DNA of 64,000 bases from Amphiscolops sp. MND2022 (lineage: Eukaryota). Position numbers and translations under genes: made by a program. The DNA is taken from positions 75,394,001 to 75,458,000 of the forward strand of contig OZ076409.1 in the NCBI GenBank assembly GCA_964187785.1, read 5' to 3'. The notes under the pieces are model-generated. The model saw only the letters and a program-made list of their open reading frames with translations. It was not told the DNA's origin and did not search any database. Below are positions 7,637-62,000 of this stretch, in pieces (position 1 is the stretch's first letter; the number at the start of each line of letters is the position of its first letter).

Positions 7637-8904
7637 GTGGCCGTGTCTTTTCGACGTGCTTTTGCATTGAGGAGTGGGTAGGGCCCCGCGACGACCTAGA
7701 AGAATTGGATGCTCACCGAAACGTGCAGAATTCTACGAGATCTCATAGTTTGAGCCATACGATTTTTCTGAAATTTGGCATGTGGCCTGGAATTGGTGAG
7801 TAGGTAAAACGTGTAGGAGGTGATTTTTCCCAAATTCCACTGTGAGACGAGATATGGGCAAATAACGGTCCCAAAAATGGCAAAAATGCACTTTTTTCAA
7901 CTTTGTCAGCCCATATCTCGTTCCCAGGTGCCCGGAGCGGGACGCGTTAAGCTGATTATAAACTCTAGGGTGTTGAGGCTGTACGGTGAACTTGGGCCCG
8001 TTCCGATCCGACTTGTAGTCTTGGAGAAATAACGGTATTTTTGGGGAACCTTTTCTAACGGTCCAGCTTATCTTTGCCATTTTTTCGAAAATGTACTGGC
8101 CTAAAGGCCTCCCCCTGGCCGAATTTACTCCCAGCAAAACCATTTGGCCCTAAATACGGAGTTTCAGCGTTCCAGCATTCCCGGGCGAAAAGTTGTGGGA
8201 CTTGGAAAATTTTCAAAAATTTTCAAAAATTTTTTTTTTCGTTTTCCGGGCCCCCAATGAAGGGGAAACGACCCCCCAACCAGTATTTTGAGTGAATTCA
8301 TGTGGAAAGCCCTTGTTTTGACGAGAAAAATACCGTTTAGAACATCTTTTTATCTTGACTCAACGTTGACTTATGACGTTTTGAATGTGATGTAAGGATG
8401 TAGGAGGCATGTGATAAGTTGATGTTTTGAGCCTTATCTCATATGAAAGCGGTTGAGATGCAAGCTGTCCTGCTCAAAACGTCTTTCGTTGTAACTTTCC
8501 AGTGCACCAATACCCTTTGGTGTCATATAAACATACTTTTTGTCGATATATTAACAATTTTAATGTATTTATTCCAATTTTTATTATCTTATAACTCAAA
8601 ACAGTTGAGTACATTTCATCTCCCTTTCGGGGGAGATGAGAATGTACTCGCTAAAGACCTAGCGCCATGACCAAAAATTTGAAACCCACGTTTTTTATCT
8701 TCTTACAGACTTGTTTTTGTATTTTTTCGGAATTTTTTAAAAATTAATATACTTGAAATACATTACTTGACTTTACTACTACAACCCACCTCCAACGACA
8801 ACGCCCCCCTGCTTGCATCAACGCCCACCGTCCGTGGGCATGCCGAGGCATGCCCTTCGACGACGTATGCCAAATGCCCAGTGCCACGCAGTCATTATCG
8901 CTAG
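7637..8904 (+). repeat. Unit subtype B1 (other copies 28099-29366, 37159-38427, 57740-59008)
   Basis: Head GTGGCCGTGTCTTTTCGACG, internal CTCTAGGGTGTTGAGGCTGTAC, tail GCAGTCATTATCGCTAG; lengths 1268-1269 bp. Confidence 0.93.
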
Positions 8905-10190: not shown

Positions 10191-11477
10191 GTGGCCGGAA
10201 ATTTTTTTTTTCAGCAAAATCTTTGCCATTGGGGGAGGGGCCCCGGATGGCCAGTAGTACGGGATAGCTTCCTACCAAATCCAGGCGGAAAAAACGTGAT
10301 TTTGGAAACTAGCCGTCAGAATTTGCTCAAAATTTGCATACGGCTTCCTATGACAATTCTAAGAACTAATCCTTACTGGCATTTTGCCCAAAAAACGCAA
10401 AAAGTTGGTCAAAATCTTAGTTTTTTGGTCAAAAAATGGCGTTTTTTCGAAAAAAAATTTTTTCAGAGACAATTACTCGTAACTGGTTCACCCAGCGCAA
10501 AAACGTCTAGCTGATTTATTGTTGGGCACTTCATGAGGAGTGCGTATACAAATTTTCGTCCAGATCGGAAGAAAAATGACTAAGTATTGGCCGGAATTCG
10601 GACGCATTTTTTCGCAAATTTTTGAAAACCTAGTCTATCTCTGCCGTTTTTTGCCCAGATTTTTTTCCAGGTCCTCTCCTAAAGGCCTCCCCTGGCCGGT
10701 TTACTTCCCAGAAAAACCATTTGGCCCTAAATACGGAGTTTCAGCGTTCTAGCATTCCCGGGCGAAAAGATGTGGGACTTAGAAAAAATTCAAAATTTTT
10801 CAAAAAAAATTTTTTCGTTTTCCGGCCCCCCAATGAAGGGGAACGACCCCCTAACGAGGATTTTTGGTGAATTCACGTGGAAAGGCCTTGTTTTGTGGAG
10901 CAAATTGCCGTTTAGAGCAACTTTTTATCTTAACTTGACGTTGACCTCTGTCGTTTTGAATTTGATATTAGTATGTGTTGAGCATGTGAAAAGTTGATGA
11001 TTCCAGTTGTTCTCTCGTGTTCAAGCCATTGAGATACAAGGGGTAGTGATCAAATTGTGATTTATCGCAATTTGATGGTGCTTTTGGTGTATTTTGATTC
11101 TTTTAAATAAAAAGTTGTTCTTTATATATTTGGTGTATTGATTCAAATGAACAAGAAACAGTTGAGTACATTTCATCTCCCCCCTTGTGGGGGAGATGAG
11201 GATGTACCCGCTAAATGACACGCACAATTGCCCAATTTTATTTTTATGCGACATTTTCTAGGCTTTTGCGCAAGCCCACTAAAATTTAGACTGGTTTCCT
11301 TTTCTTTTGCTCCAAAATTTTCCGTACTAACCACCTTACGCACCACCAGCTCAACGTAACATCTGTAACGTCAACGCCACACACTCTCACTAACGCCCAC
11401 TGTCCGTGGGCATGCCGAGGCATGCCCTTCGACGACGTATGCCAAATAGCGCCACAGGGCGCAAACTTGTCCGCTAG
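10191..11477 (+). repeat. Unit subtype C (second copy 20433-21718; C-headed variants 17880-19159, 41002-42271, 52650-53921)
   Basis: Head GTGGCCGGAAATTTTTTTT...CTTTGCCATTGGGGGAGGGGCCCCGG; tail GCTAAATGACACGCACAAT. Confidence 0.92.
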
Positions 11478-19159: not shown

Positions 19160-20432
19160 GTGGCCGCGTCTTTTGTCGAACTTTAACCATGGAGGCGCGG
19201 GTAGGGTCCTGCGCCGACTTAGTGCCTTTACTATGATACAAAAATAGGTACCTGAGTAAACGATCTCGAAGATGAGCCGTCAGAAATTCCTGAAAATTTG
19301 CATGTGGCCCCCAATTGGCGAGCATATGAAAAGTGTAGGAGGTCATTTTTCCCAAATTCCACTGTGAGACGAGATAAACGCGAAAAATGAGGTAAAAAAT
19401 GGACCTATTTTTGATAAATTTTGCAATATCTCGTTCCAGAGGCATCGGAGGTACCGTATACCTGACGTGGAAAATGCTCGGCATGTGAAGGGGGTTACGT
19501 GGACAAATTTTCGTCCAAATCGGATAAAAATTGACAGAGTAATAACAAATTTTTTTGTGCATTTTGGCGACTTTTTCAGAAAACCCAGTTTATCTCTGCC
19601 GTTTTTTGCCCAGATTTTTTTCTAGAACCTCTCCTAAAGGCCTCCCCTGGCCGGTTTACCTCCCAAAAAAACCATTTGGCCCTAAATACGAAGTTTCAGC
19701 GTTCTAGCATTCCCCAGTGAAAAGTTATGGGACTTAGAACTTTTTCAAAAATTTTCAAAATTTTTCTAAAAAAGTTCAAGCCGCCCAAAGTGAAGAAACT
19801 TCCACACAACTAGTATTGCAAGTGAATGCATGTGGAAAGCCCTGCACTTGACGAGAAAAATGCCGTTTAGAACGTCTTTTTATCTTAACTTGATGTTGAC
19901 TTATGATCTTTTGAGTAGCGTATAACACGTGATCACAGTAGTGAAAATCCTAATTTTCAATAATTTTCAAACAATAACGCATGAAACGAACCTGGAAAAG
20001 GTTCCGATGGGTCAGTTGGGATGTCTGAAGCATGTGTACTTTTCCGTAGTGTATAGCGGATGTATTTGGGACTTATTAGAAATTGTGATATATTTTATAC
20101 AAGTCTTTGTTTCTCTTAGAATCTTATGCAGTTGAGTACATTCCATCTCCCTCTCAGGGGAGATGTGAATGTACGTTTGCCAAACGCCTTGTAAAGCTCA
20201 CAAATTAGATGGATTCAAATAACTAAACAAGTGTGATTTGCGTTTGCCGAACCACTGCGACAAAATATCCTAAATCTATAGCGAGATTGTATGGTTTTTG
20301 TATTTAGTGTTTCGTCTTGTGTAGCCGACTTCCACATCCAAATATCAACGCCCGCCGTCCGTAGGCATGCCGAGGCATGCCTTTCGACGACGTATGCCAA
20401 ATACCCAATGCCACATAGTCTTTTCCCGCTAG
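19160..20432 (+). repeat. Divergent single-copy unit (subtype D)
   Basis: Head GTGGCCGCGTCTTTTGTCG. Retains central block, bulged hairpin and a dyad variant AGGCATGCCGAGGCATGCCT; 1273 bp. Confidence 0.9.
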
Positions 20433-38800: not shown

Positions 38801-41800
38801 CTTGAACTCGAGGAGATATAGCGTTTTTCCGGAGCGGGGGGGTTTCATTTTTCTAACGGTCCAGCTTATCTTTGCCATTTTTTCGAAAATGCACTCGCCT
38901 AAAGGCCCCCCCTGGCCGGTTTTATTCCCAGCAAAACCATTTGGCCCTAAATACGGAGTTTCAGCGTTCCAGCATTCACGGGCGAAAAGTTGTGGGACTT
39001 AGAAAATTTCAAAAATTTTCAAAAAAATTTTTTTCCGTTATTTGGGCCCCCAAAGTGGGGGAAAAGACCCCCCAACCAGTAAAGCAAGTGAATGCATGTG
39101 CAAAGCCCTTGTTTAGAGGAGAAAAATGCCGTTTAGAACGTCTTTTTATCTTGGCTCAACGTTGACTTATGACGTTTTGAAGGTGATGTTTGGAGGTGTA
39201 AAGCACGTGAATAGTAAACGTTATGAGTATTTATCTGATCTGGAAGCCATTGAGATGCAATATGGTTTGCTCAAAACGTAATTCATGGCAGTTTGGCAAT
39301 CAATCAACACCCTTTGTTGTCGTTTGACATACTTTTTTGTTGTTATAATGAAAAATTTTGTGTATTTATTCATTTTTTCTCATCAAATAACTTGAAACAG
39401 TTGAGTACATTCCATCGCCCCCTTCCGGGGGAGATGAGAATGTACTCGCAAAAAGCACCGAACTACGGCCCTTACCTTCCCGAGCTACGCAGTATAAGGA
39501 TTACATATTGGTTCCGACATTTTCAAGAGTTAAATCTTGGTAATCTGTCTGGATATGCAGAAAAATCAGCACGTGCCTTTTAATACCAAGTTGCTCACAA
39601 CGACATTTATTTTATATCAACGCCCCCATATTTATCAACGCCCCCCGTCCGTGGGCATGCCGAGGCATGCCCTTCGACGACGTATACCAAGATATGTTCG
39701 AGCGCGTTAGCCTAGGTGCCGGGATTTCCATTCGATAAGGAATTCTGCGCGTGTGGGTAGGGCCCCTGGCGCGCTCCTGTGTTTTCGGTTTTCCTACTCC
39801 AAATTCACACCCCAGTTATCTCCGATCTCGTAAACTATCCATACGATTTGGCTGAAATTTGGCACACGTACCCCCCTCGGCACGGTGAAGATGATTTCCT
39901 ACTGACGTTTTTCCCGCTAAACATTTTTTGTTGACCAAAATAACGGTTTTTGGGGTAAAATTTTCAACTTTTTTTAAATTTTATCTTATATCTCGCCACG
40001 GGTACACGCTAGCGCTTCCAAACCTTGCTGACGAAAGTTTGCAAACTGTCTCAGCAATGCTGTGTGAAATTTTCAGCTCAATCGGACTTAAACTCGAGGA
40101 GATATAGCGTTTTTCCGGAGCGGGGGGGTTTCATTTTTCTAACGGTCCAGCTTATCTTTGCCATTTTTTCGAAAATGCACTCGCCTAAAGGCCTCCCCTG
40201 GCCGGTTTTATTCCCAGCAAAACCATTTGGCCCTAAATACGGAGTTTCAGCGTTCCAGCATTCCCGGGCGAAAAGTTGTGGGACTTAGAAAATTTCAAAA
40301 ATTTTCAAAAATTTTTTTTCCGTTATTTGGGCCCCCAAAGTGGGGGAAAAGACCCCCCAACCAGTAAAGCAAGTGAATGCATGTGCAAAGCCCTTGTTTA
40401 GAGGAGAAAAATGCCGTTTAGAACGTCTTTTTATCTTGGCTCAACGTTGACTTATGACGTTTTGAAGGTGATGTTTGGAGGTGTAAATCACGTGAATAGT
40501 AAACGTTATGAGTATTTATCTGATCTGAAAGCCATTGAGATGCAATATGGTTTGCTCAAAACGTAATTCATGGCAGTTTGGCAATCAATCAACACCCTTT
40601 GTTGTCGTTTGACATACTTTTTTGTTGTTATAATGAAAATTTTGTGTATTTGTTCATTTTTTTCTCATCAAATAACTTGAAACAGTTGAGTACATTCCAT
40701 CCCCCCTTCCGGGGGAGATGAGAATGTACTCGCAAAAAGCAGCGAATTACGGCCCTTACCTTCCCGAGCTACGCAGTATAAGGATTACATATTGGTTCCG
40801 ACATTTTCATAGAGTTAAATCTTGGTAATCTGTCTGGATATGCAGAAAAATCAGCACGTGCCTTTTAATACCAAGTTGCTCACAACGACAATTATTTTAT
40901 ATCAACGCCCCCATATTTATCAACGCCCCCCGTCCGTGGGCATGCCGAGGCATGCCCTTCGACGACGTATACCAAGATATACATCGAGCGCGTTAGCCTA
41001 GGTGGCCGGGAATTTTTTTTTCAGCAAAATCTTTGCCGCTGGGGGAGGGGCCCCGGGCGGCTGTTAACCGGAATTCATACTATGCAAAACCTATCACAAT
41101 TCTCAGATCTCAGGATCCAGCCAGTAGGATTCGCTCAAAATTGGCACAGAGCCTCCTTGAAAGATTATAAGAACTTTTTCCTTGTGGCGTTTTTCGATTG
41201 AAATATTTTATGTTGACCAAAATTGCGTTTAAAATGCCCATTGTTGCGTTTTTATTGTCTTTTTCGAATTTGACGGTCCATAACTTTTTTTGAGGTGCTC
41301 GGAGCGGGTCGCACGTGGAAAGCAATATTACTCAGCACTAAAAGGGGAGTGCGTGAACAAAATTTCGTCCAAATCGGATGAAAATTGGATGAGTAATAGT
41401 CGGAAATTTGGCGCATTTCGTCGACTTTTTTCGAAAACCCAGTCTATCTCTGCCGTTTTTTGCCCAGATTTTTTTCCAGGTCCTCGCCTAAAGGCCTCCC
41501 CTGGCCGGTTTACATCCCAAAAAAGCCATTTGGCCCTTTTGCCGCAGTTTCAGCGTTCCAGCGTTTCCCGAATAAAAGATAAATGACTTAGAATTTTTTT
41601 CAAAAAATGTTCAAAAAATTTTTTTTTCAATTTCAGGCCTCCCAAAGTCAAGAAACTTCCAAACAACTAGTATTGCAAGTGAATGCATGTGGAAAGTGCT
41701 TGAAGAGACGAGGAAAATGAGCTATTATAAAACTCTTTAGCTTAACCTGACGTTGACTTATGACATTTTTAGTGTGAGCTTCCTATGTGCTAAAAAATCA

Positions 41801-53921: not shown

Positions 53922-55180
53922 GTGGTCGGGGCGCTCTCCCAACCTCTTCCGCCGCCTCGGGGAGGGTCCTGATTGGCGGCACCCCTTATGGAAAACTTAC
54001 TGTTAGAAACGCACCAGTGTAATGCTGATTTCGAAAACCACCCGTACGATTTTGCTCAAATTTTGCATGTAGCTCCCAAATTCCAATACAAGAACTAATT
54101 CCTACTGCCATTTTTCCGGGAAAACTCAAAAAGTTGGTCAAAAATGACATTTTCTGAGTGAAAAATGGCCATTTTTTGACTTTTTTATTTTTGATCGGCT
54201 ATAACTTTTTCCAGGGTGCTCGGATCGAAAAAAGTTTGTATAGGTAAAGTTGTTCGGCACTTCGAGTAGAACTCGTAGACAAAGTTTGGTTGAGATCGGA
54301 TGAAAATTGACTGAGGAATAACCGAAAAACCATCGATTTTTTGAAAAAAATTTTGACACACTAGTATGACTCTGCCGTTTTTCGGCCAAAGTTCTTTCTA
54401 GAACCTCGTCTAAAGTCCTCCCCTGGCTGAATTACCTCCCAGCAAAACCATTTGGCCCATTTGCCGAAGTTTCAGCGTTCCAGCATTCCCCGGGTAAAAG
54501 ATAAATGACTTAGAATTTTTACAAAAAAATTTCAAAAAAAATTTTTTTCTTCAAGCTTCCCAAAGTCAAGGAACTTCCACACAACTAGTATTGCAAGTGA
54601 ATGCATGTGGAAAGTGCTCGAATAGACGAAAAAAATGAGCTATTATGAAGCTCTGTAGCTTAACCTGACGTTGACTTATGACAATTTTAGTGTGAGCTTG
54701 CTATGTCGTAAAAATGAAAAAAACTCAAAATCGAAGCTAAGTCTCATCCAAAACTCATCGGAATACGTTCAATCAACCCCAGAGCTGTTCAATCAGCGCT
54801 GTTTAGTGCAGCAACGCTATTTAGGGCCTTAGGATCCATTTTGGTAAGTTTTGAAACCGTCTTATCCTTCTAATAGCACAAAACAGTTTCGTACATTCCA
54901 TCTCCCTCTCGGGGGAGATGAGAATGTACTCACAAAAAACCAAGTATTACACCCCCATTCTACCAGTAGTGGCGTTACAAATGCAGCAGCGTGAGCTTTA
55001 CAGTAGTCTCTACGTGTGTTGACTCTGAGCTAAAAATGTATTTATATCACCAAACGTGAATGAAATGTTTTACTCCAAAATTATTTTACATTTAATATGT
55101 CATCAATGCACGCATTTCAATCTATCTACAACTACTACTACCTACCCCCGTGCTAGTCACGCACAAGCCTGCAGCGCTAG
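53922..55180 (+). repeat. Divergent 1259 bp unit lacking the GGGCATGCC dyad
   Basis: Central block (~54408-54515) and bulged hairpin (~54892-54929) are present. The last ~250 bp are unrelated to other tails but still end in GCTAG|GTG. Confidence 0.88.
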
Positions 55181-58100
55181 GTGCCGGGATTTCTATTCGA
55201 TAAAGTAAGTTGCGCGATTGGGTAGGGCCCCGTGAGCGCGCCCGTGTCTGTGTTTTTTGAACCTGAATTTGCGGGTGCCAAAATAGACGATCTCCTAAAC
55301 TATCCATACGATTTGGCTCAAATTTGGCATACGGGTTCCTGAGACAGATATAAGAACTAATTCCTACTGGCGTTTTGCCCGGAAAATTTTTTTTGTTGCG
55401 CAAACTTGAAATTTTTGACAAAAAAATGCGATTTTTTTTGAAAATTTTTTTTTGAGATGCCATATCTTTTTTCAGGGTGCCCGGAGCGGGACGCGTTAAA
55501 CTGATTATAAACTCTACGGTTCATGGGCTGTACGGGGAACCTATTTTTGTTGGAATCCGACTTGTAGATTTTGAGATATATTATCAAATTTGGGTGTTTT
55601 TTTTCCAATTTTTCGAAAAACCTGGTTTATCTCTGCCGTTTTTTGCCCAGATTTTTTTCTAGACCCTCTCCTAAAGGCCTCCCCTGGCCGGATTACGTCC
55701 CAGCAAAACCATTTGGCCCTAAATACGAAGTTTCAGCGTTCTAGCATTCTCGGGCGAAAAGTTGTGGGACTTAGAAAATTTTTTTTTAAAACGCAAAATG
55801 TGTAAAGTCAACTACAGGCCTCCCAAAGTCAAGGAACTTCCACACAACTAGGATTGCAAGTGGATGCATGTGGAAAGTGCTTGAATAGGCGAGGAAAATG
55901 AGCTATTATAAAACTCTGTAGCTAAACCTGATGTTGACTTATGACAATTTTAGTGTGAGCTTGCTGTGTGAAAAAAAATTTCAAAAATTGAAAATCGAAG
56001 CTAAGTCTCATCCAAAACTCATCGGAATACGTTCAATCCATTCCAAAGCGGTTTACTTCCAGCTATAGACTGCAGCAACACTATTCAAGACCATTGTACC
56101 CCTTTATATTAGTTTTGACATTGTATTATTCATCCGAGAGCACAAAGCAGTTGAGTACATTCCATCTCCCTTTCGGGGGAGATGAGAATGTACTCGCTAA
56201 AGAACAGGTACTACAGCCAATTTTTGTATTTATGCGAAGCCATTCTATGCTATTGCACATAACAACTATGCTATTGACTTAATTTTGCCTACACTTTGCT
56301 ATGACATATGCTAAACGTTTGGTCCTTACAACAACATACACATGACTAACGTCAACACCACATACTGTTACCAACGCCCACCGTCCGTGGGCATGCCGAG
56401 GCATGCCCTTCGACGACGTATGCCAAATACCTTCCAGCGACGCTCGCGCTCCCCGGCTAGGTGGCCGTGTCTTTTCGACGTGCTTTTGCATTGAGGAGTG
56501 GGTAGGGCCCCGCGACGACCTAGAAGAATTGGATGCTCACCGAAACGTGCAGAATTCTACGAGATCTCATAGTTTGAGCCATACGATTTTTCTGAAATTT
56601 GGCATGTGGCCTGGAATTGGTGAGTAGGTAAAACGTGTAGGAGGTAATTTTTCCCAAATTCCATTGTGAGAGGAGATATGGGCAAATAACGGACCCAAAA
56701 ATGGGGAAAATGCACTTTTTTCAAGTTTGTCAGCCAATATCTCATTTCCAGGTGCCCGTAGCGTTCCGCACGTGGACATCAATATTGCTCAGCGCTGTTA
56801 GAAGAGTGCGTGGACAAATTTTGGTTCAAATCGGACTGAAACTTGGCGAGAAATTAACGGTTTTTTGGGCGTTTCCGGGGTAAATTTTTTAACGGTCCAG
56901 CTTATCTTTGCCATTTTTTCGAAAATGTACTTGCCTAAAGGCCTCCCCCTGGCCGAATTTCCTCCCAGCAAACCCATTTGGCCCTAAATACGGAGTTTCA
57001 GCGTTCCAGCATTTCCGGGCGAAAAGTTGTGGGACTTAGAAAAATTTCAAAATTTTTCAAAAAATTTTTTTTCCGTTTTCCGCCCCCCCAGAGGGGAAAA
57101 GACCCCCCAACCAGTATTTTGAGGGATTGCATGTCGAAAGCCCTTGTTTTGACGAGAAAAATACCGTTTAGAACATCTTTTTATTTTAACTTGACGTTGA
57201 CTAATGACGTTTTGAATGTGATGTTTGGACGTGTGAGGCATGTGAAAAGTTGATGTTTTGAGTCTTTATCTCATGTGAAAGCGATTGAGATGCAAGCTGT
57301 ACTGCTCAAAACGTCTTTCGTTGTAGTTTTCCAGTGCCGCAATAACCTTTGATGTCATTTGAATATACTTTTCTTCGATATATTAACAATTTTATTGTAT
57401 TTATTCCAATTTTTGTTATCTTATAACTCAAAACAGTTGAGTACATTTCATCTCCCTTTCGGGGGAGATGAGAATGTACTCGCTAAAAACCTAGTGCTAT
57501 TGCGCCGCAATGATTGCAAAAGTTGTTTTTACTGCTGTTCCACAAGCATTTTTAAACTGACTTTTTTAAAACTATTAATTAACTTAAAGTACATTACTTG
57601 AACTTACTACTAATACCACCTATCTCTAACGTCAACGCCCCCCTGCTTGCATCAACGCCCACCGTCCGTGGGCATGCCGAGGCATGCCCTTCGACGACGT
57701 ATGCCAAATGCCCAGTGCCACGCAGTCTTTTCCCGCTAGGTGGCCGTGTCTTTTCGACGTGCTTTTGCATTGAGGAGTGGGTAGGGCCCCGCGACGACCT
57801 AGAAGAATTGGATGCTCACCGAAACGTGCAGAATTCTACGAGATCTCATAGTTTGAGCCATACGATTTTGCTGAAATTTGGCATGTGGCCTGGAATTGGT
57901 GAGTAGGTAAAACGTGTAGGAGGTGATTTTTCCCAAATTCCACTGTGAGACGAGATATGGGCAAATAACGGTCCCAAAAATGGCAAAAATGCACTTTTTT
58001 CAACTTTGTCAGCCCATATCTCGTTCCCAGGTGCCCGGAGCGGGACGCGTTAAGCTGATTATAAACTCTAGGGTGTTGAGGCTGTACGGGGAAGTCAGGC

Positions 58101-59008
58101 CCGTTCCGATCGGACCTGTAGTCTTGGAGAAATAACGGTATTTTTGGGGAACCTTTTCTAACGGTCCAGCTTATCTTTGCCATTTTTTCGAAAATGTACT
58201 CGCCTAAAGGCCTCCCCCTGGCCGAATTTACTCCCAGCAAAACCATTTGGCCCTAAATACGGAGTTTCAGCGTTCCAGCATTCCCGGGCGAAAAGTTGTG
58301 GGACTTGGAAAATTTTCAAAAATTTTCAAAAAATTTTTTTTTCGTTTTCCGGGCCCCCAATGAAGGGGAAACGACCCCCCAACAAGTATTTTGAGTGAAT
58401 TCATGTGGAAAGCCCTTGTTTTGACGAGAAAAATACCGTTTAGAACATCTTTTTATCTTGACTCAACGTTGACTTATGACGTTTTGAATGTGATGTAAGG
58501 ATGTAGGAGGCATGTGATAAGTTGATGTTTTGAGTCTTTATCTCATATGAAAGCGGTTGAGATGCAAGCTGTCCTGCTCAAAACGTCTTTCGTTGTAACT
58601 TTCCAGTGCACCAATACCCTTTGGTGTCATATAAACATACTTTTTGTCGATATATTAACAATTTTAATGTATTTATTCCAATTTTTATTATCTTATAACT
58701 CAAAACAGTTGAGTACATTTCATCTCCCTTTCGGGGGAGATGAGAATGTACTCGCTAAAGACCTAGCGCCATGACCAAAAGTTTGAAACCCACGTTTTTT
58801 ATCTTCTTACAGACTTGTTTTTGTATTTTTTCGGAATTTTTTAAAAATTAATATACTTGAAATACATTACTTGACTTTACTACTACAACCCACCTCCAAC
58901 GACAACGCCCCCCGGCTTGCATCAACGCCCACCGTCCGTGGGCATGCCGAGGCATGCCCTTCGACGACGTATGCCAAATGCCCAGTGCCACGCAGTCATT
59001 ATCGCTAG

Positions 59009-62000
59009 GTGCGGGGGGGAAACCCCAACAAATATATTGGAGGATTCGGGTAGGGTCCTGAATCCGATTTTAACTCTAATAGCTATCGATAGGAAATCTT
59101 GCAAAAATTTCGGGATCTCGTGATCTAACCATAGGATTTTAAAGTTGGAGCGGCCCCCACCAGATTTTCCGAAAATTAGCGCCCCCCACCGGGTTCCATA
59201 CCCCGGAAAATTTTTTTCTGGCCACACGGGCGACCGTTAGGGGGTCATTTTAGGGGTAAAAATCATATTGGGCCACATAACTTTTTTTCTGTTGATTTAA
59301 AACTTTGGAACCCTGCTAAAAGTTTCTTGACCGTGTTGCAGGGGCCCCGAAGGTCCAAACCAAATTTTTCTATCTTGAAGCTATCTCCAAGTACCCCCCC
59401 GCTCAAACCGTTATTTTTCCGGAAACGCAGGTTTTTGACCCGGAAGGAGTCGTCTGAGCGCGGGGTCGTTAGGTGATGTATTGGGGACGGCCTTGAGACG
59501 AAGTGGGGGACAAGTAGTTTGCCAACCTCAATTTACCCCCCGGACGGGAAATGACCGTTATATGAGCGTGAAAAATGCCCCCTCCACGTTTTACCGCTAT
59601 TTCCGGTGTGAAGGAGTGGGAGTAGCGCGTCGGGTGCCATATATCAAAAGTAGGTTTAGACAAGGACCTATCGGAAACATGTGGTTTGGGACCCCCTGGA
59701 CCAACCCGTTAGCGGGAAATGGGGCTTCCGCCTCCTTTTTTTACGGTTAAAAACGGAAAATGGGCATTGAGGGGTAAATATCTCGTGAACGCGTGGAGCA
59801 ATCGTGTCCATCACTACTACAAGGTTTCATACCCATGATATGGTGCCTTCAGGGGGGCAAACAGATTTCCGCTATCTATCACCGTTACGGACTTGGCCCC
59901 CCAGCCTAACCGCTATGTGACCGGAAATGTCACTTTTTGAGCCCAAAGGGTCGGTCCCAGCCGGGGAACGTTAGGTAACTTATTGTAGTACTCAGTGAGA
60001 CGAGTTGGGGGATATAGTTTCAGTCACCCCCCGTTACCCCTTGGGACCGGAAATGACCGTTATGTGGGTAAAATTGCAATTTTTATACTTTTTCAAGTGT
60101 ATTTAGGTGCGGAAGGAGTGGTAATAGGTGCTTGGACACTATATGAGGTAAGAGAGGACGTGAGGCGAGCATTCGGAAATAACCGTTATGTTGACCCTAA
60201 AGTCCCCCTGGTACCGTAAACGACCGGAAATGGTCAAATTTTGTGTCTATTGGGTACAAATGTTTTGTATTTTGTAGATAAAAGTATCTATTAGGTGTTT
60301 CGACGGACTACAGTAGTGAACATAGTCATGAAACCTTGTGGGGGGTAACGGTATATAGCACCGGAAGTCAAACCGTTGGAGACAGGATAGGTTTTTTGGT
60401 TTTAAAATGTCTTTCGGCGTAATTTTTTCGACTCTTGTGGACTATTTTTAAAAATTAAAGTTTTTCCATATAGTTTCAGAGACTCCGAAACCTCAACCAA
60501 CATAACCGTTACCTTATGATAGCCTTTCAAGTTGGCCTGGTGTCAACTTGGAAGCGCTATCCTTCTGAAATCGGTAATCAAGAGTGTTTTTGGGTAGGTA
60601 TATATTGCATTAGTACCAATTAGAGCTTCATCAACAGTGTATCAACGACAAAAACTATGCCGTCATGATTCCGTTATTAGAATCATAGTGAGCAAATTGT
60701 TGAAAAAAATGGTTTTTTCCATACAAAATGTGTCCTAAATGCCAGGAAACCTATTTACCTAACAAATGGTGTTAATTGGAATGTTTGTAACAGATTTATA
60801 AAAGTTCAAATTGAATATTACATTTCATTATGGAAGCTGAAACGTCATATTTTAGTTTAATTAACGTCAACGCCACACACTTTACATCAACGCCCATCGT
60901 CTGTGGGCATGCCGAGGCATGCCCTTCGACGACGTATGACAAATCCATATCAAACGACGCCCGTACATGCCGGGCTAGGTGCGGGGGGGTAACCCCTACA
61001 AAGATATTGGAGGATTCGGGTAGGGTCCTGAATCCGATTTTAACTCTAATAGCTATCGATAGGAAATCTTGCAAAAATTTCGGGATCTCGTGATCTAACC
61101 ATAGGATTTTAAAGTTGGAGCGGCCCCCACCAGATTTTCCGAAAATTAGCGCCCCCCACCGGGTTCCATACCCCGGAAAATTTTTTTCTGGCCACACGGG
61201 CGACCGTTAGGGGGTCATTTTAGGGGTAAAATTCATATTGGGCCACATAACTTTTTTTCTGTTGATTTAAAACTTTGGAACCCTGCTAAAAGTTTCTTGA
61301 CCGTGTTGCAGGGGCCCCGAAGGTCCAAACCAAATTTTTCTATCTTGAAGCTATCTCCAATTACCCCCCCGCTCAAACCGTTATTTTTCCGGAAACGCAG
61401 GTTTTTGACCCGGAAGGATTCGTCTGAGCGCGGGGTCGTTAGGTGATGTATTGGGGACGGCCTTGAGACGAAGTGGGGGACAAGTAGTTTGCCAACCTCA
61501 ATTTACCCCCCGGACGGGAAATGACCGTTATATGAGCGGGAAAATTGCCCCCCTCCACGTTTTACCGCTATTTCCGGTGTGAAGGAGTGGGAGTAGCGCG
61601 TCGGGTGTTATATAACAAAAGTAGGTTTAGACAAGGACCTATCGGAAACATGTAGTTTGGGACCCCCTGGACCAACCCGTTAGCGGGAAATGGGGCTTCC
61701 GCCTCCTTTTTTTAGTGCTAAAACCGTAAAATGGGCATTGAGGGGTAAATATCTCGTGAACGCGTGGAGCAATCGTGTCCATCACTACTACAAGGTTTCA
61801 TACCCATGATATGGTGCCTTCAGGGGGGCAAACAGATTTCCGCTATCTATCACCGTTACCGACTTGGCCCCCCAGCCTAACCGCTATGTGACCGGAAATG
61901 TCACTTTTTGAGCCCAAAGGGTCGGTCCCAGCCGGGGAACGTTAGGTAACTTATTGTAGTACTCAATGAGACGAGTTGGGGGATATAGTTTCAGTCACCC

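Follow-up and report, generated by a model that had tools for sequence, protein, structure and literature searches.

Helitrons are mobilized by transposases of the HUH family, which act on single-stranded DNA (ssDNA) (PMC4778049). The steps described for Helraiser comprise a nick at the left end, covalent holding of the 5′ end, peeling of the strand, formation of a circle with a junction between the right and left terminal sequences (RTS and LTS), and reinsertion (PMC4778049, PMC5876387). In the RTS hairpin of Helraiser the stem can be swapped and the loop cannot, and the LTS is essential (PMC4778049). HLE1 elements target A|T and HLE2 elements T|T (PMC11417382), and in IS91 the target CTTG lies next to oriIS, with terIS being cut at CTCG (bioRxiv 2025.01.24.634351). 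Terminal hairpins and tandem Helitrons are already known, and what the transposase reads at the left, initiating end of Helitrons is poorly defined. Here we describe a candidate signal for that end in a window of 64,000 nt (the whole stretch analysed) from the 1.07-Gb genome of Amphiscolops sp. MND2022 (assembly GCA_964187785.1, contig OZ076409.1, positions 75,394,001 to 75,458,000; C1 75.39-75.46 Mb), which lies in an array region at C1 ~70.6-76.5 Mb. The window is a head-to-tail array of Helitron-like units whose heads carry a covarying hairpin with a fixed apex, a precise and testable determinant that dozens of subfamilies, as well as distant relatives, have in common. Helitron2/Helentron/HLE2 elements likewise keep a 5′ hairpin by compensatory changes (PMC3627910, PMC11417382), but the hairpin described here is subterminal, with its loop at +40, and its apex is fixed.

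The plus strand of the window holds 48 CTAG|GTG junctions and the minus strand none. The apex GGG[GT]AGGG[GTC]CC follows every one of the 48, its loop starting 40-44 nt past CTAG, and has no other occurrence on the plus strand of the window. The array and its heads are represented by the following features:

1-64000, plus strand: heterogeneous head-to-tail array of 47 complete non-autonomous Helitron-like units, GTG...CTAG
59005-59008, plus strand: CTAG, the 3′ terminal tetranucleotide of the upstream unit, which also fits the family target rule CTNG|DT
59009-60978, plus strand: non-autonomous element of 1,970 bp, GTG...CTAG, with the hairpin at 59042
59042-59065, plus strand: head hairpin of the 59009 unit, a 9-bp stem with one G·T pair and a 6-nt TAGGGT loop
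1264-1291, plus strand: head hairpin of GCGCG/CGCGC type with an internal loop
10225-10251, plus strand: head hairpin of GCCAT/ATGGC type
41035-41061, plus strand: head hairpin of GCCGC/GCGGC type, with two adjacent compensatory changes relative to 10225-10251
19194-19215, plus strand: head hairpin of GGCGC/GCGCC type
53949-53979, plus strand: head hairpin of CCGCC/GGCGG type
7674-7689, plus strand: head with the apex but without a stable outer stem (the type of 9 of the 48 heads)

The five example hairpins quoted in the original prediction are correct in coordinates and letters, its spacing of 40-44 nt holds at all 48 junctions, and the double compensatory change from GCCAT/ATGGC to GCCGC/GCGGC is real. 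Its statement that a stem-loop follows every junction stands for the apex but not for the stable outer stem, which 9 of the 48 heads lack. Similarly, the conserved KAGGG loop is found throughout the window but not genome-wide, where some copies have C as the opening base of the loop, and metagenomic relatives have A. Clustering at 85% identity reduces the 48 heads to 17 types, so that the number of independent cases is below 48. Folded as DNA, the 59042-59065 hairpin reaches -6.6 kcal/mol (z -2.5) and its minus strand -4.5, and 39 of the 48 window heads reach -6 kcal/mol or better, whereas the single head type that makes up the other nine forms the short inner stem alone (-2.2 to -3.2, z +0.7). 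Stability relative to shuffled sequences is moderate, with z from -1.1 to -2.5 for the originally quoted examples and a genome-wide mean of -1.6 over 47 head clusters. In these clusters the outer apex pair is G-C in 33 and G·T in 14, and the top strand is the better folder in 41 with DNA parameters and in 46 with RNA parameters. At the base of the stem, 24 of the 47 clusters (23-39, 42, 45 and 46 among them) have GAG in the left arm and CGA in the right, which could make tandem G·A pairs. A search of Rfam at the gathering threshold, one of the checks proposed with the prediction, gave no match for the hairpin. Genome-wide, the head pattern follows CTAG at least 3,829 times (at least 3,000 of them forward) versus 0 in the control, and a slightly wider pattern follows CTGG, CTTG or CTCG 656 times.

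Covariation of the arms was assessed on 329 heads from the window and from fetched loci, which reduce to 112 distinct hairpin windows and to the 47 clusters. Cognate outer arms form 6.13 pairs versus 5.00 for permuted arms (register-tolerant count over the 47 clusters, p<1e-5). When 23 disjoint pairs of closest relatives were picked on a tree of the flanking sequence, cognate arms paired better in 14, equally well in 7 and worse in 2 (sign p 0.002); the slid-arm control of this relatedness-paired test gave 9 versus 8. Among 18 bulge-free stems, hand-picked and therefore biased toward pairing, 78% of cells are paired versus 58% in shuffled sets, a value reached by 0 of 500 shuffles; double-change cells number 42 versus 20, and slid registers are at most 49.5% paired. 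We read the arm covariation as real but of modest power. Selection most likely acted on transposon families during their spread and not on each array copy.

The loop lies 38-50 nt from the nick-site end in 325 of the 329 heads (overall span 38-57 nt). Heads are preceded by CTAG in 245 of 329 cases and by CTGG in 72, with a CTTG end in L107 and L122, and solo copies begin with GTG (in one case GTT). Few heads (41, versus 12 in the control) follow a base other than G. The commonest tail type has CTAG followed by GT in 4,642 of 4,705 occurrences and by another base in 63. Among 46 distinct free 3′ flanks, a set from which flanks starting with G were excluded by the search design, 27 start with AT and 12 with TT (39 of 46 together). 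Of the 63 free 3′ ends, 40 were followed for 8 kb upstream; a left boundary was found for 16 of them, preceded by CTTG in 6, CTCG in 4, CTAG in 3 and other tetranucleotides in 3 (CTNG in 13 of 16), and no recognisable head for 21; L161, whose head is doubtful, is left out of this count, and the arrays of L156 and L178 ran beyond the fetched stretch. Among the fetched loci, empty paralogues were found for two of the solo copies tested, L153 and L107. The filled L153 site reads CTTG|GTG...CTAG|AT and the empty one CTTG|AT, in L151 and L030 (two exact paralogues and one with a changed base); for L107, the paralogue L175 reads CTGG|GT. The empty L153 site shows that insertion creates no target duplication and that CTNG belongs to the target. 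A 4-bp duplication of CTAG was considered and is ruled out by this empty site and by CTTG or CTCG left flanks combined with CTAG right ends. The target rule, CTNG|DT, is thus the same as the head-to-tail junction CTAG|GT. Solo copies L167 and L172, which have unique flanks, share the head type of the 59009 unit. Another solo copy, L148, lies inside tRNA-like sequence and has a doubled CTAG at its left.

Long units in the same arrays encode proteins of 2,373 and 2,853 aa with Helitron_like_N, PIF1 and C-terminal GIY-YIG domains (RepHel-GIY-YIG). In the L051 and L053 proteins PF14214 and PF05970 score above their curated cut-offs, and the HxH motif and Walker A are present; a PDB sequence search matched the helicase part alone, to Helraiser (7LCC, E 1e-6). 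The stretch C1 71.6-76.5 Mb contains 13 Pfam matches, their open frames spanning 2,350-2,545 aa; two of these were confirmed on fetched sequence. The RepHel open reading frame (ORF) runs from the GTG head toward CTAG, which places the hairpin at the left end, 5′ of the transposase gene. Indeed, the same apex precedes the ORF by 1.0-3.4 kb in all five autonomous elements in which the junction was reached (L051, L288, L290, L292 and L053). Window units have in common with the autonomous 5′ region a block of ~250-300 bp that is 72-79% identical. Downstream of RepHel, an accessory ORF is found clade-wide, including in metagenomic relatives. Its structural model (predicted local distance difference test 83) has OB folds like those of RPA, CST and MCM10 (Z up to 9.3), which suggests an RPA-like protein of the OB-fold type of ssDNA binders.

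The apex also recurs far outside this genome. In 65 metagenomic loci with RepHels of the clade (443,763 bases), the strict motif GGG-N-AGGG-N-CCY has four matches (L194, L198, L199 and L228), three of them independent, as L198 and L199 are one element. All four are upstream of RepHel in the sense orientation; this zone accounts for 6% of the searched strands. Each falls within a predicted stem, that of L199 being cut by the contig end. Block shuffles give 0.7 strict matches anywhere, and 2 of 200 reach four. A model trained on the Amphiscolops genome alone recovers the strict matches and adds L188; there, on the strand that faces into the element, the loop is preceded by a GTG at a distance of 40 nt. 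The left ends of the L194, L198 and L228 elements could not be located. In a further metagenomic relative, L204, telomere-like repeats of TTAGGG type come after a CTAG close to the 3′ end.

The right ends are less uniform. Tails fall into several types unrelated between subfamilies, and across 67 tail types a hairpin 10-15 nt before the 3′ end, as is characteristic of HLE1, is present in some and missing from many, including autonomous tails. Most non-autonomous units carry a palindrome in the tail:

58940-58959, plus strand: near-invariant palindrome of 20 nt, found in most non-autonomous tails

This palindrome is missing in all four autonomous elements with visible 3′ ends. In dispersed tail-only copies of 80-110 nt (L139, L141, L142, L155, L158, L175 and L177) it has collapsed to one arm.

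The head hairpin is the sole structure common to all subfamilies and to the autonomous copies. Because it is common to all, and autonomous tails are without the palindrome and frequently have no terminal hairpin at all, we took it as the origin determinant. Specifically, with a probability of roughly 0.7, we propose that the hairpin is a left-end subterminal signal that would fold in displaced ssDNA and be read mainly through its GGG-NAGGG-N-CC apex, licensing nicking at CTNG|GT ~40 nt upstream. Its reader would likely be the element's own RepHel or the RPA-like partner. By analogy with Helraiser and IS91, RepHel would nick after CTNG and hold the 5′ G covalently, the helicase would peel the strand, a cut would be made after the 3′ CTAG or CTGG, the circle would close with a CTAG|GTG junction, and it would then be joined into a CTNG|DT site. 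The best possible target under this scheme would be a resident head-to-tail junction, which offers the ideal tetranucleotide and a hairpin at the right distance, and the hairpin possibly marks the element's own copies as landing sites. Such a preference would explain both the 4,642 of 4,705 tails followed by GT and the shuffling of subfamilies at the junction. The original prediction had held that selection acts on a folded single strand, whose loop is probably read by a protein and which a neutral satellite would not need. This view is supported because the units are Helitron-like with an ssDNA-acting HUH transposase, the apex stays constant where the stem varies, and it is found again beside distant RepHels; of ssDNA and RNA, between which the prediction did not choose, DNA is favoured.

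Several observations weigh against this proposal. Chief among them are the many short headless copies with just the 3′ ~80-270 nt, which, if the head is the origin, need abortive integration or later deletion. The nine window heads without an outer stem are abundant all the same. The claim of covariation under control for relatedness holds in the arm-pair test (14/7/2) but not in the nearest-relative test on duplex energies, which is flat (14/11/13 with DNA and 18/8/12 with RNA parameters). RNAalifold on a 25-head alignment retained four pairs, because bulges shift the register. G-rich composition alone predicts part of the top-strand preference, which was not controlled for it. Outside this genome, the GTG of L188 is preceded by GTCT and not by CTNG, the trained model has four pairs and only two of its five matches are at E<0.01, and 20 of the 24 metagenomic loci with more than 500 nt upstream are without the strict motif, although these may stop short of the element end. 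Furthermore, Helraiser has its end-cleavage determinants in the outermost 40 bp (PMC4778049), whereas the loop here starts at 40-44. Finally, neighbouring units share a head type in 8 of 47 cases versus 4.0 expected (p 0.04), so that local duplication contributes to the arrays.

The last point bears on the origin of the arrays as a whole. They could have arisen mainly by host recombination or by rolling-circle amplification of a few insertions, as a Helitron-derived satellite in which the hairpin is still an end signal but does not steer insertion to junctions. Besides the slight excess of identical neighbours, the last three window heads are of one type; moreover, Helitron-derived tandem arrays are known (PMC12001565), as are centromeric transposon arrays copied by host recombination (bioRxiv 2026.09.17.752431). 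The composition of the arrays nevertheless makes this account the less likely one. In the window, unit lengths are 1.26-1.39 kb, and 1.97 kb for the last two. There are 17 head types among 48 neighbours, and median pairwise identity of the units is 65%; at many loci, units of 1.0, 1.3 and 2.0 kb are intermingled with 13-kb autonomous ones. Across the window junctions, the type of a tail shows no association with the head that follows it (p 0.50) and is linked to the head of its own unit (p<2e-4); thus, units are shuffled as whole modules, and exchange takes place at the junction itself. In one sequencing run, possibly of the same sample, a different tail was joined at CTAG to the 62946 head. 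A simple rolling-circle concatemer of one monomer is ruled out by the heterogeneity of the units. Host recombination probably also expands the arrays alongside transposition.

Two further explanations are both improbable. The element could work in the opposite direction, with the CTAG tail as origin and the hairpin as a terminator read on the bottom strand. The common headless copies with intact tails would then be natural, many tails have no consistent hairpin 10-15 nt before CTAG, in Helitron2 and Paramecium elements the RepHel gene can lie in reverse orientation to the ends (PMC3627910, PMC13085455), and the Helraiser terminator is itself a hairpin with swappable stem and fixed loop (PMC4778049). 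However, the G·T pairs favour folding of the top strand, the 3′ ends CTAG, CTGG and CTTG are as in Helitron1 and in Helraiser truncations (PMC4778049), and tails unrelated between subfamilies are not expected of an essential origin. Equally doubtful is that a protein recognises GGGNAGGG in double-stranded form, or that this sequence makes up half of a motif of G-quadruplex or telomere-like kind, with the inverted repeats as binding half-sites or by-products. The apex is conserved far above the arms, one abundant head type nearly lacks the outer stem, and telomere proteins are among the closest OB-fold matches, although RPA and MCM10 reach equal scores. A dimer reading sequence would not need arms that change yet stay complementary, and non-canonical G·T pairs are tolerated on one strand alone. 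Least probable by a narrow step is a role in RNA, at the element transcript's 5′ end (a promoter-proximal hairpin, or an export or silencing-escape signal), as the hairpin, despite its sense-strand position upstream of the RepHel ORF and the good folding of G·U pairs in RNA (46 of the 47 clusters favour the top strand), is held at a set spacing from the point where the DNA would be nicked (38-50 nt for 325 of the 329 heads) and not from the ORF (1.0-3.4 kb), is retained in ORF-less copies and has no Rfam match.

Judged by sequence, the RepHel lineage falls outside both HLE1 and HLE2. The 27 clade proteins form one split with support 1.0 in the Rep, Hel and joint FastTree trees, which are unrooted, include 23 HLE1-type and 21 HLE2-type proteins labelled by motif and Pfam, and leave out L285 and P0298. 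Identity of the clade to HLE1- or HLE2-type proteins is 18-19%, versus 24% between these two. In the HUH motif of all 27 members, the stretch between E and the second H is 13-15 residues long and RG is missing, whereas HLE1- and HLE2-type proteins have 11-12 residues with RG-type spacing. RepHel has 53 database relatives at 24-99% identity, many of them with GIY-YIG and all lacking an informative name. Among representatives clustered at 50% identity, 350 clusters match it at E<=1e-30, and no relative was found in viral contigs.

The elements resemble Helitron1/HLE1 in a RepHel with Y2-type Rep and PIF1, a CTRR-like 3′ end on the coding strand and the lack of target duplication (PMC4778049, PMC5876387, PMC11417382), as well as in the RPA-like gene downstream of RepHel and in a head-to-tail junction equal to the expected circle junction. 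The CTAG and CTGG ends agree with the CTRR terminus of HLE1. They differ from HLE1 in a 5′ end of GTG instead of TC, a target of CTNG|DT instead of A|T, a conserved hairpin near the 5′ end, a C-terminal GIY-YIG, the 13-15-residue HUH motif without RG, and a separate branch in the trees. With HLE2, HLE2-reverse and proto-Helentron included, they may share an OTU-like domain in some members (PMC3627910, PMC11417382), but they have neither DUF6570 (absent in all seven clade RepHels scanned, present in six of six HLE2-type ORFs of the same genome) nor the T|T target, and again branch separately. The third clade described in Paramecium likewise lies outside HLE1 and HLE2, inserts in an orientation- and sequence-specific manner, and has a target resembling the last four bases of the element itself (CCAA in telomeric repeats) (PMC13085455). 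It differs in this telomeric target, and the main text of that paper makes no mention of GIY (PMC13085455); one copy read by eye, Hel01Copy001, has the canonical 11-residue HUH motif with RG, unlike the 27 clade members. IS91 offers a parallel for the target, with a tetranucleotide beside the origin end (CTTG) resembling the terminator cut (CTCG), no duplication and subterminal palindromes (bioRxiv 2025.01.24.634351). IS91, however, is bacterial and its transposase has no helicase (PMC10288648), whereas here a PIF1 helicase is fused, in a 1.07-Gb genome; moreover, the IS91 transposase is not the closest relative of the Helitron Rep (PMC6213432), and the likeness to IS91 is functional. The fused helicase also separates the family from Replitrons, which have a Y1 Rep without helicase (PMC10288648).

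In the full-text literature searched, with subscription journals outside its coverage, neither the RepHel-GIY-YIG lineage nor a CTNG Helitron target nor this hairpin is described. Clusters left unclassified by HELIANO number at least four, and a captured GIY-YIG is reported for one HLE2 family (PMC11417382); the lineage may be among those unclassified clusters. As HELIANO looks for TC/CTRR or terminal inverted repeats, and the family follows neither the A|T nor the T|T rule on which Helitron finders rely, it would be missed or left unclassified by such finders. The wider proposal, that this is an undescribed major Helitron lineage (hundreds of clusters at 50% identity, from an animal and from aquatic metagenomes) with an IS91-like target and a clade-wide origin hairpin, which homes into its own junctions and so builds megabase mixed arrays by transposition, is tentative and falls slightly short of an even chance. 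Were self-targeting confirmed, it would provide a direct route from a transposon to a megabase tandem array, and a satellite-like chromosome domain would have been written by a self-targeting HUH transposase. The four-base target and the many intact 2,370-aa transposase genes point to a possibly active and more site-selective rolling-circle system.

Large one-strand arrays of the family with many intact transposase genes lie at C1 ~70.6-76.5 Mb, C2 ~102.0-102.4 Mb, C7 ~16.15-16.21 Mb, C8 ~25.6-25.7 Mb, and C1 3.49-3.64 and 37.9-38.2 Mb; one intact RepHel copy is at C1 24.0 Mb. Two other features lie upstream of the 59009 unit:

57740-59008, plus strand: upstream unit of 1,269 bp with the weak-outer-stem head type
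58711-58753, plus strand: second long internal hairpin, ~250-300 nt upstream of the 3′ end, present in most 1.3-kb units

Within the first of these, positions 58198-58489 share 78% identity with sequence from the 5′ part of the autonomous RepHel element L051, and the 3′ arm of the internal hairpin occurs 44 times in the window. The window also has 11 ORFs of 120-180 aa, none of which is part of the hairpin finding.

Longer RepHel frames (L053:931-9492 on the minus strand, L019, and L018:4321-5169 on the minus strand) contain a GIESNPGP motif near the N-terminus, which we take to resemble 2A/StopGo, and one of them has a weak OTU match (E 0.05). Beside RepHel, ORFs of ~200 aa with G-A-S near their start (L052:3059-3727, minus; L055:8417-9016, minus; L291:5737-6387, plus; L292:5784-6659, minus) are presumably reminiscent of SGNH hydrolases; Pfam searches with three of them gave nothing for two and a weak DUF459 match for the L292 ORF. 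The same genome also carries canonical HLE1-type and DUF6570-bearing HLE2-type RepHels with long open frames (L274-L276, L278-L285).

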